Source: Escherichia coli
GTDB lineage: Bacteria; Pseudomonadota; Gammaproteobacteria; Enterobacterales; Enterobacteriaceae
Length of the DNA stretch: 64,000 bases
Direction: 5' to 3' (one strand)
Assembly (NCBI RefSeq): GCF_036507355.1
Contig: NZ_AP027877.1
Shown: in pieces, positions 10,152 through 14,454 of the stretch
Position numbering within the stretch: position 1 is the stretch's first letter
Layout: each line of letters opens with the position of its first letter
Notes under the pieces: model-generated
What the model was told of the DNA's origin: nothing
The model's input: the letters and a program-made list of their open reading frames with translations, nothing else
Database searches by the model: none
Made by a program: the position numbers and the translations under genes

Positions 10152-11401
<1,250 letters not shown>

Positions 11402-11578
11402 TAAAGTAAGTAACTGGTTAATTTACATTCTGGTCGCGTGCGCAAATACGCTTTTCCTCACACAGTTGTCAAGTGTTACGTTTAGATAATTGCTATCCGG
11501 AAAAGCATCTGCTATTTATAGCGGCCTCATTTTTCCCCCGAACATGGGGATCGATAGTGCGTGTTAAGGAGAAGCAAC

Positions 11579-12034
11579 ATGCAAGAAGGGCAAAACCGTA
11601 AAACATCGTCCCTGAGTATTCTCGCCATCGCTGGGGTGGAACCATATCAGGAGAAGCCGGGCGAAGAGTATATGAATGAAGCCCAGCTGGCGCACTTCCG
11701 TCGTATTCTGGAAGCATGGCGTAATCAACTCAGGGATGAAGTCGATCGCACCGTTACACATATGCAGGATGAAGCAGCCAACTTCCCGGACCCGGTAGAC
11801 CGTGCAGCCCAGGAAGAAGAATTCAGCCTCGAACTGCGTAACCGTGATCGCGAGCGTAAGCTGATCAAAAAGATCGAGAAGACGCTGAAAAAAGTGGAAG
11901 ACGAAGATTTCGGCTACTGCGAATCCTGCGGTGTTGAAATTGGTATTCGCCGTCTGGAAGCGCGCCCGACAGCCGATCTGTGCATCGACTGCAAAACGCT
12001 GGCTGAAATTCGCGAAAAACAGATGGCTGGCTAA
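11579..12034 (+). CDS. dksA: RNA polymerase-binding transcription factor DksA
   Basis: ATG 11579 ([12 protein letters not shown]...), 151 aa; C4 zinc finger CESCGVEI...CIDC. Confidence 0.95.
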
Positions 12035-12061
12035 TTACAGCCGTTCCATCACGTTTACCAC

Positions 12062-12090
12062 AGGCGGGAAATGCTCCCGCCTTATTTTTT
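12062..12090 (+). terminator. Rho-independent terminator after dksA
   Basis: 8-bp stem aggcggga/tcccgcct with 5-nt loop, followed by ttatttttt. Confidence 0.7.
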
Positions 12091-12100
12091 GTTCAAAGAG

Positions 12101-12997
12101 ATGACAGACACACACTATATTGGCCGCTTCGCCCCCTCTCCTTCCGGCGAGCTTCATTTTGGTTCTCTGATTGCTGCGCTTGGCAGCTATTTGCAGGCTC
12201 GCGCCCGGCAAGGTCGCTGGCTGGTACGCATAGAAGATATCGACCCGCCTCGTGAAGTTCCCGGTGCCGCAGAAACTATCCTGCGCCAGCTGGAACATTA
12301 CGGTCTGCACTGGGACGGCGATGTTCTCTGGCAATCGCAACGTCACGATGCCTATCGTGAAGCACTCGCCTGGTTACATGAACAAGGACTAAGTTATTAC
12401 TGCACCTGCACGCGTGCGCGTATTCAAAGCATTGGCGGTATTTACGACGGTCATTGCCGGGTGTTGCATCATGGACCAGACAACGCCGCAGTGCGTATCC
12501 GCCAGCAGCATCCGGTCACGCAATTTACTGACCAGCTGCGCGGCATTATTCACGCCGACGAAAAACTGGCACGGGAAGATTTTATTATTCATCGCCGTGA
12601 TGGTTTGTTTGCCTATAACCTGGCGGTGGTGGTGGATGATCACTTCCAGGGCGTGAGCGAAATTGTCCGCGGGGCAGATTTGATCGAACCGACAGTGCGG
12701 CAAATCTCGCTGTACCAGCTTTTTGGCTGGAAAGTGCCAGATTACATTCATCTGCCGCTGGCGCTTAATCCACAAGGCGCTAAACTTTCCAAGCAGAATC
12801 ATGCGCCTGCGTTGCCGAAAGGTGATCCACGCCCGGTACTAATCGCGGCACTTCAATTTCTGGGGCAGCAGGCAGAAGCACACTGGCAGGATTTCAGCGT
12901 CGAGCAAATCCTTCAGTCAGCCGTCAAAAACTGGCGGCTTACCGCAGTGCCTGAGTCGGCAATTGTAAATTCAACATTCTCAAATGCGTCATGCTGA
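12101..12997 (+). CDS. gluQ: Glutamyl-queuosine tRNA(Asp) synthetase (GluRS paralog)
   Basis: ORF track 12071..12997 (308 aa); ATG 12071 sits in the terminator loop, ATG 12101 ([22 protein letters not shown]) gives 298 aa; class I HIGH-like motif. Confidence 0.85.
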
Positions 12998-13056
12998 GCT
13001 ATGATTAGCCGCTATTTTTTTGTCCTGAATGATGTTTGACACTACCGAGGTGTACT

Positions 13057-14454
13057 ATTTTTACCCGAGTCGCTAATTTTTGCCGCAAGGTGCTAAGCCG
13101 CGAGGAAAGCGAGGCTGAACAGGCAGTCGCCCGTCCACAGGTGACGGTGATCCCGCGTGAGCAGCATGCTATTTCCCGCAAAGATATCAGTGAAAATGCC
13201 CTGAAGGTAATGTACAGGCTCAATAAAGCGGGATACGAAGCCTGGCTGGTTGGCGGCGGCGTGCGCGACCTGTTACTTGGCAAAAAGCCGAAAGACTTTG
13301 ACGTAACCACTAACGCCACGCCTGAGCAGGTGCGCAAACTGTTCCGTAACTGCCGCCTGGTGGGTCGCCGTTTCCGTCTGGCTCATGTGATGTTTGGCCC
13401 GGAGATTATCGAAGTTGCGACCTTCCGTGGACACCACGAAGGTAACGTCAGCGACCGCACGACCTCCCAACGCGGGCAAAACGGCATGTTGCTGCGCGAC
13501 AACATTTTCGGCTCCATCGAAGAAGACGCCCAGCGCCGCGATTTCACTATCAACAGCCTGTATTACAGCGTAGCGGATTTTACCGTCCGTGATTACGTTG
13601 GCGGTATGAAGGATCTGAAGGACGGCGTTATCCGTCTGATTGGTAACCCGGAAACGCGCTACCGTGAAGATCCGGTACGTATGCTGCGCGCAGTACGTTT
13701 TGCCGCCAAATTGGGTATGCGCATCAGCCCGGAAACCGCAGAACCGATCCCTCGCCTCGCTACCCTGCTGAACGATATCCCACCGGCACGCCTGTTTGAA
13801 GAATCGCTTAAACTGCTACAAGCGGGCTACGGTTACGAAACCTATAAGCTGCTGTGTGAATATCATCTGTTCCAGCCGCTGTTCCCGACCATTACCCGCT
13901 ACTTCACGGAAAATGGCGACAGCCCGATGGAGCGGATCATTGAACAGGTGCTGAAGAATACCGATACGCGTATCCATAACGATATGCGCGTGAACCCGGC
14001 GTTCCTGTTTGCCGCCATGTTCTGGTACCCACTGCTGGAGACGGCACAGAAGATCGCCCAGGAAAGCGGCCTGACCTATCACGACGCTTTCGCGCTGGCG
14101 ATGAACGACGTGCTGGACGAAGCCTGCCGTTCACTGGCAATCCCGAAACGTCTGACGACGTTAACCCGCGATATCTGGCAGTTGCAGTTGCGTATGTCCC
14201 GACGTCAGGGTAAACGTGCATGGAAACTGCTGGAGCATCCTAAGTTCCGTGCGGCTTATGACCTGTTGGCCTTGCGAGCTGAAGTTGAACGTAACGCTGA
14301 ACTGCAGCGTCTGGTGAAATGGTGGGGTGAGTTCCAGGTTTCCGCGCCACCAGACCAAAAAGGGATGCTCAACGAGCTGGATGAAGAACCGTCACCGCGT
14401 CGTCGTACTCGTCGTCCACGCAAACGCGCACCACGTCGTGAGGGTACCGCATGA
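13057..14454 (+). CDS. pcnB: Poly(A) polymerase I
   Basis: ORF track 13036..14454; known PAP I N-terminus ([12 protein letters not shown]...) begins at ATT 13057-13059; C-terminal basic tail; stop overlaps folK start (ATGA). Confidence 0.85.

Follow-up and report, generated by a model that had tools for sequence, protein, structure and literature searches.

Which of two in-frame ATG codons begins gluQ in Escherichia coli, the one in the loop of a terminator-like hairpin or the one just beyond it, and from where does the gluQ message come? We examined this question in a stretch of 64,000 nucleotides of E. coli DNA (the window). The genes around the junction, sfsA (ending at 11401), dksA, gluQ (also yadB; to 12997) and pcnB, all lie on the + strand, and 5,424 of 5,426 complete E. 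coli genomes match this part of it at identities of up to 99.5%. dksA is 456 nt long in 80 of 80 related loci. An ORF lister gives gluQ as 12071..12997, 308 aa. Only the frame common to dksA and gluQ, free of stops from the end of the dksA TAA to the gluQ coding sequence, makes this long ORF possible. A sequence-only reading had placed the stem, the loop ATG at 12071, the T-tract and the second ATG at 12101, and direct reading finds all of these positions correct.

Features of the dksA–gluQ junction, in window coordinates
Feature	Position	Strand	Evidence
dksA CDS, 151 aa, stop TAA 12032-12034	11579..12034	+	ORF list; RefSeq annotation of 99.5%-identical E. coli DNA
dksA intrinsic terminator stem-loop (supported), AGGCGGGA / AATGC / TCCCGCCT	12062..12082	+	reading, fold, conservation, published stem mutations
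ATG in terminator loop, spurious start codon; annotated gluQ start in K-12 NC_000913.3 and UniProt P27305	12071..12073	+	
Terminator T-tract, TATTTTTT	12083..12090	+	direct reading; Term-seq 3' end at 12086
True gluQ initiation codon (supported), without upstream Shine-Dalgarno (SD) sequence	12101..12103	+	Edman, N-terminomics, PDB chain, PGAP, conservation
gluQ (yadB) CDS, 298 aa, glutamyl-Q tRNA(Asp) synthetase	12101..12997	+	1NZJ match; RefSeq product name

The arms of the stem, AGGCGGGA (12062-12069) and TCCCGCCT (12075-12082), enclose the loop AATGC (12070-12074). A terminator scan recovered the same hairpin, with eight pairs (six of them G-C) and a 5-nt loop, within the G+C-rich stem of about 5-14 bp and short loop that characterize intrinsic terminators; the U-rich tract that should lie directly 3' of such a stem is also present (TATTTTTT, seven of nine bases T). 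Folding gives −14.5 kcal/mol for the hairpin alone and −18.5 kcal/mol for the 76-nt junction (z = −2.37 relative to shuffled sequences). Because a simple terminator-like pattern is not rare (five found in a 2.5 kb stretch against 3.7 expected), the case for more than chance rests on conservation.

Conservation was assessed at the gluQ locus of 80 Enterobacteriaceae species, drawn from genera that include Escherichia, Citrobacter, Salmonella, Kluyvera, Enterobacter, Leclercia, Lelliottia, Cedecea, Buttiauxella and Kosakonia, with no E. coli or E. fergusonii representative among them. Of the 80, 76 have, immediately 5' of gluQ, a hairpin with the core GGCGGG...CCCGCC. Core columns are 97-100% identical, compared with 34-53% for the 25 nt of 5' flank and 84% for dksA third-codon positions. 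When 50 distinct sequences are aligned, standard pairs occupy 86.5% of cells, as against 49-58% with the 3' partner slid by 1-3 columns, and, bar one G-U cell, only G-C or C-G combinations occur at the six core pairs in any of the 50 sequences. Both-sided changes occur in 5 of 11 pairs and are compensatory at both stem ends: the inner A-U pair becomes G-C in four aligned sequences (L007, L015, L023 and L034) and the basal A-U pair becomes U-A in Cedecea (L060, L062). Core conservation, pairing and compensatory change together therefore identify the hairpin as a real, selected structure. Its loop and innermost stem vary freely, the segment between the core halves taking 30 forms among the 76 species, and the dksA–gluQ spacer ranges from 51 to 172 nt. 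Within E. coli, positions 12040-12110 are identical in 4,454 of 5,424 genomes.

The T fraction of the T-tract over positions +1 to +9 averages 0.67 across species and the tract is degenerate in Enterobacter-like genera, as in the Enterobacter, Lelliottia and Yokenella loci (for example CTT GTTACCGTTGAT, at about positions 1486-1500; loci L030, L039-L041, L043, L048, L055, L057, L058, L061, L064, L065, L070, L071, L077 and L080). These loci keep the hairpin, even extending it to 10-11 bp, and place it 10-12 nt from the gluQ ATG. Judged by sequence, termination may be weaker in these three genera, or the hairpin may act mainly as a stabilizer or translation modulator. Loci L027, L029, L032 and L066 (Phytobacter, a Kosakonia sp. 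and a related MAG) lack the GGCGGG core and carry a different hairpin, CGGGGAAAATTTCCCG. Other Kosakonia loci (L047, L049, L051, L067) have a longer spacer, with an extra G+C-rich hairpin upstream of the conserved one.

Published transcript ends and reporters support the hairpin as a functional Rho-independent terminator of dksA, which is how the sequence-only reading had interpreted it. Term-seq of E. coli MG1655 finds a 3' end with 3,097,035 reads at K-12 position 160097, minus strand (Adams 2021, PMC7815308). Window and K-12 do not differ across the junction, and this position, 15 nt from the annotated gluQ start, maps to 12086, inside the T-tract. The site has an intrinsic-terminator score of 7.47 (threshold 3) and a Rho score of 1.16 ('No'), lies outside Rho termination regions and is insensitive to bicyclomycin (BCM); DirectRNA-seq coverage upstream of it is 250 with or without BCM, and downstream it is 62 without the drug and 72 in its presence (Adams 2021, PMC7815308). 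In Shigella flexneri, stem mutations raise downstream lacZ expression more than 2-fold and deletion of the intergenic region raises it about 10-fold (Caballero 2012, PMC3542578). The supplements of the TERMITe Term-seq re-analysis (PMC12207403) do not mention gluQ or dksA.

The dependence of gluQ on read-through of this terminator is likewise supported. In S. flexneri, a dksA–gluQ transcript is detected by RT-PCR, and a lacZ fusion carrying the region from dksA +58 to the gluQ start, without the dksA promoters, yields baseline β-galactosidase (Caballero 2012, PMC3542578). This baseline activity indicates that gluQ has no separate promoter. The cotranscript, this fusion and the fall in coverage from 250 to 62 all agree with the read-through dependence proposed from the sequence, and the published lacZ reporters are of the kind proposed for checking it. 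Estimates of read-through are crude, the value of 10% coming from plasmid lacZ and that of 25% from 800-nt coverage windows, which also reflect mRNA stability.

Comparison among species distinguishes the two candidate start codons. The ATG at 12101 is in frame with that at 12071, 30 nt downstream of it and 11 nt past the T-tract. An ATG occupies the equivalent position in 77 of the 80 species, and tblastn matches start at residue 1 of the 298-aa form in 75 of them. Apart from the window, only L004 and L006 (Escherichia sp. E1V33 and E. albertii), two of four other Escherichia species, have a loop ATG in frame. E. whittamii (L003) has ATA at this position, and in Escherichia sp. MOD1-EC7003 (L005) the loop ATG is out of frame, with a tail 1 nt shorter. 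The divergent E. coli isolate AF16 (L086) has the loop ATTAC and no loop ATG, all non-Escherichia genera in the 80-species comparison lack it, and E. fergusonii is without the first (loop) methionine (Caballero 2012, PMC3542578). Other genera have a 'leader' broken by frameshifts or in-frame stop codons; the stops stand 6-36 nt before the conserved ATG in loci L012, L017, L022, L033, L072, L078, L060, L030 and L039. The two substitutions sampled in the 30-nt 'leader' of E. coli (12095 and 12097) would each change an amino acid if the long frame were translated. The ten leading codons, whose conservation had been suggested as a check, are thus not conserved across the 80 species, whereas the second ATG is.

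The N terminus of the protein points to the same codon. Edman sequencing of S. flexneri GluQ gave TDTQYIGRFAP, assigning the start to the second Met and a length of 298 aa, from a T7/pET construct in which a pelB ribosome-binding site replaced dksA, so that this start call does not come from the native context (Caballero 2012, PMC3542578). For E. coli K-12 b0144, the nascent N-terminal peptide MTDTQYIGR appears in row 32 of TRAINSPOTTER Table S1, classed as an 'N-terminal truncation (10aa)'; it corresponds to residues 11-19 of the 308-aa entry, with an inferred start at 160080-160082 (Van Damme 2026, PMC13245402). Row 32 is a single peptide whose Ribo-seq and Ribo-RET support columns are empty, as its modification columns apparently are, and the table has no row for the annotated 308-aa gluQ start (PMC13245402). 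A rare long proteoform, with the hydrophobic N-terminal peptide MLPPYFLFK, could go undetected. The true gluQ start at 12101, with its 298-aa product, is nevertheless supported by the Edman sequence, the MTDTQYIGR peptide, the 298-aa crystal form and the comparative data, so that what had been offered as the probable start is upheld, including by the N-terminal proteomics suggested for checking it.

Homology also defines the product. From residue 11 to residue 308, the long ORF aligns with 1NZJ/4A91 over its full 298 residues, with two substitutions (E = 3e-206). Structures of GluRS homologues align only from residue 17-19 of the long form (for example, with residue 3 of Thermus thermophilus GluRS), the 10 extra residues of the long form have no counterpart in homologues, and the N terminus that matches them is that of the 298-aa form. 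The translation contains class I signatures, an HXGS variant of HIGH (...GELHFGSL...) and a KMSKS-like motif (...GAKLSKQ...), and an HXGS subgroup has been described for GluQRS (Caballero 2012, PMC3542578). On these features the gluQ product can be assigned as GluQRS, glutamyl-Q tRNA(Asp) synthetase (YadB), a truncated paralogue of the GluRS catalytic domain.

Calculated pairing with the ribosome would favour the other codon. The anti-SD duplex is worth −6.3 kcal/mol at AUG 12071 and −1.7 kcal/mol at AUG 12101, and the AUG at 12071 might be usable if the hairpin melted because its SD-like match is the better one. That match, AGGCGGG, 6 nt upstream of 12071, is however part of the 5' arm of the stem. 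Opening the region from −15 to +12 costs 17.7 kcal/mol for AUG 12071, against 5.1 kcal/mol for AUG 12101.

Could the 308-aa protein nonetheless be real, initiation occurring at ATG 12071, alone or together with 12101, through AGGCGGG on RNA in which the hairpin has opened? The ORF runs unbroken from 12071, its SD-like duplex is the stronger and both the K-12 record and UniProt carry the long form, but N-terminal sequencing and N-terminomics find only the Met-11 start, the SD-like bases are locked in a −14.5 kcal/mol stem, the loop ATG is missing, out of frame or stop-interrupted in most relatives and the crystallized protein (1NZJ/4A91) has 298 aa; the 308-aa reading is already largely refuted and we consider it exceedingly unlikely. 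The 3' end at 12086 might also be the product of exonucleolytic trimming or processing of a longer RNA, stopping at the hairpin, instead of termination. Term-seq cannot separate termination from stable processed ends, and an end only 4 nt past the stem, where the usual release point is 7-9 nt, suggests some 3' trimming. Processing alone would not predict the downstream reporter rise on stem mutation or deletion, however, and both the 4-fold fall in coverage across the site and the canonical intrinsic-terminator anatomy (score 7.47) make this account highly improbable. A promoter of its own would free gluQ from the need for read-through, and RegulonDB holds a predicted sigma-24 site for gluQ, cited by Caballero 2012 (PMC3542578); few growth conditions have been sampled. 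The promoterless fusion nonetheless stays at baseline (Caballero 2012, PMC3542578), a scan of 11400-12101 for sigma-E-like sites (GGAACTT with up to two mismatches, a 15-17 nt spacer and TC[ACT][AG]A) returned no match and transcription from the sole sigma-70-like match near the junction (12092-12121) would begin only beyond ATG 12101. We therefore judge a separate gluQ promoter very unlikely.

Regulation of the terminator itself is a further consideration. As a regulated attenuator, it would vary read-through with growth phase or stress by means of a protein, small RNA or ligand, inducing GluQRS independently of dksA mRNA. In S. flexneri, the intergenic RT-PCR product rises about 20-fold at stationary phase, against 1.3-fold for the dksA and gluQ amplicons, in an end-point assay that is semi-quantitative, and a riboswitch-like or protein-binding mechanism was left open, although the riboswitch search made in that study was negative (Caballero 2012, PMC3542578). 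Term-seq counts at the terminator, too, change by about 12-fold from one growth condition to another (3,097,035 and 254,767; PMC7815308), but are not normalized to dksA expression. The near-invariance of the stem core across 76 species is stricter than pairing alone needs; a short G+C stem may, on the other hand, stay invariant merely since each single mutation weakens it. Against an attenuator, no Rfam family is found at the junction (a scan of 11300-12400 at E ≤ 1 returned only two chance hits inside dksA, mir-558 and sR60), nor is there the conserved 5' aptamer or antiterminator partner expected of a riboswitch or attenuator, because the 5' flank is only 34-53% identical and the spacer length so variable. 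We regard regulated attenuation as unlikely. The more specific proposal that a factor recognizing the invariant GGCGGGAG/CTCCCGCC stem raises read-through in stationary phase or osmotic stress is, to our minds, a little more doubtful still, although the 20-fold intergenic RT-PCR change and the strictness with which the stem sequence is kept would agree with it. If true, it would make the hairpin a conserved switch linking glutamyl-queuosine modification of tRNA(Asp) to stress, independent of DksA levels.

A leaky dksA terminator combined with a start at 12101 is, as a whole, the explanation that we favour, with high confidence. In this model, most transcripts from the dksA promoters would end in the T-tract at about 12086, and a minority, roughly 10-25%, would read through to form the only detectable gluQ mRNA. 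On that RNA the hairpin would re-form, burying the SD-like AGGCGGG and leaving AUG 12071 in the 5-nt loop. Ribosomes would thus fail to initiate at 12071 because the hairpin buries the SD-like bases and confines the AUG to a loop, whereas initiation takes place at AUG 12101, which has no SD sequence and lies in the A/U-rich, weakly structured stretch that follows the T-tract. A leaky terminator joined to a weak initiation site would keep GluQRS low and tie its synthesis to dksA transcription. The hairpin with its conservation, the position and Rho independence of the 3' end, the reporter effects, co-transcription and the N terminus of the protein are established by data, whereas that occlusion by the hairpin is why AUG 12071 goes unused, and that low GluQRS dosage is the selected outcome, we infer.

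This arrangement has been known since 2012, and what we describe is an outstanding annotation error, not a discovery. Caballero et al. 2012 (BMC Microbiol 12:226, PMC3542578) reported an AUG in the terminator loop, a second AUG 27 nt on and a 298-aa product. The dksA–gluQ-rs locus of S. flexneri 2457T that they studied is the same locus and element, with the same loop AUG, downstream AUG, read-through, 298-aa product and absence of an obvious SD sequence; its regulatory element is identical to that of the window, from which it differs at residue 5 (Gln for His). The same authors compared it with other internal read-through terminators, T1 of rpsU-dnaG-rpoD (upstream of dnaG) and the recA-recX terminator, which involve other genes and sequences; the misannotated start in the loop is particular to Escherichia. 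In a second respect gluQ resembles the start calls placed too far upstream that N-terminomics or initiation profiling has corrected, in which an in-frame upstream ATG with an SD-like motif likewise precedes a shorter real protein. Unlike these, gluQ adds a structural reason, the terminator hairpin, against the upstream ATG.

The 308-aa annotation is an artefact of the shared frame, the missing intervening stop and a chance ATG in the Escherichia loop. The sequence-only reading had called the long start the annotated one, which holds for K-12 NC_000913.3 (gluQ at 159186-160112, 927 nt, 308 aa) and for UniProt P27305 (also 308 aa) but not for PGAP-annotated genomes: PGAP places the gluQRS start at the 12101 equivalent in every E. 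coli genome inspected, and PDB 1NZJ likewise has 298 aa. Because of the long annotation, Term-seq labels the dksA terminator an 'ORF-internal' 3' end of gluQ, and because the 308-aa form has been kept, N-terminomics files the real gluQ start among 'alternative' initiation sites. Both labelling artefacts would disappear if the start were moved to the 12101 equivalent. The scientific value of this correction is small, since the mechanism was published in 2012 and later confirmed by two independent genome-wide datasets; its practical value lies in curation, the first 10 residues of K-12 b0144 and P27305 being a translated terminator.

The junction has several minor features. Readthrough of the single stop codon at the dksA TAA would yield a DksA–GluQRS fusion, probably a coincidence of the shared frame. 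The TGA of an out-of-frame ORF (11931-12104) shares bases with ATG 12101, as ATGA, because the conserved second codon is ACx; this too is probably coincidental. Translational coupling through this ORF was considered and rejected, as the ORF lies out of frame inside dksA and shows no sign of translation. On read-through RNA, a weak second hairpin of −2.1 kcal/mol, in which AAGAGAUG (12096-12103, + strand) pairs with the U-tract (12083-12090), can cover ATG 12101. As an occluder of that AUG it was rejected for being too weak, and it is probably incidental because the tail sequence is unconserved beyond Escherichia.

Further 3' ends and starts lie upstream. A terminator-like hairpin at 11509-11531 (+), CTGCTATTTATAGCGG then CCTCATTTTT, sits about 50 nt upstream of the dksA ATG and coincides with a published Term-seq 'orphan' 3' end (K-12 160652, window 11531); it may terminate sfsA or act as an attenuator for distal dksA promoters. 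A Term-seq 3' end inside dksA (K-12 160387, about window 11796, +) has 29,202 reads and a Rho score of 0.89 ('No'). Row 33 of TRAINSPOTTER Table S1 lists a nascent dksA N terminus at window 11672-11674 (+), with empty Ribo-seq support columns, which implies that translation can begin at Met32, inside the gene, to give a DksA proteoform of 120 aa, minus 31 N-terminal residues.

Residue 5 of the GluQRS in the window is His (12115, +; MTDTHY) instead of the Gln (MTDTQY) of K-12, S. flexneri and PDB 1NZJ, and there is Ser where 1NZJ has Thr in ...HFQGV(S/T)EIV.... Downstream, the RefSeq start of pcnB is an ATT codon (window 13057-13059, +), whereas the ORF lister gives an upstream TTG at 13036. 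An AUU start of pcnB is established, and pcnB is a second translationally throttled gene, adjoining gluQ.
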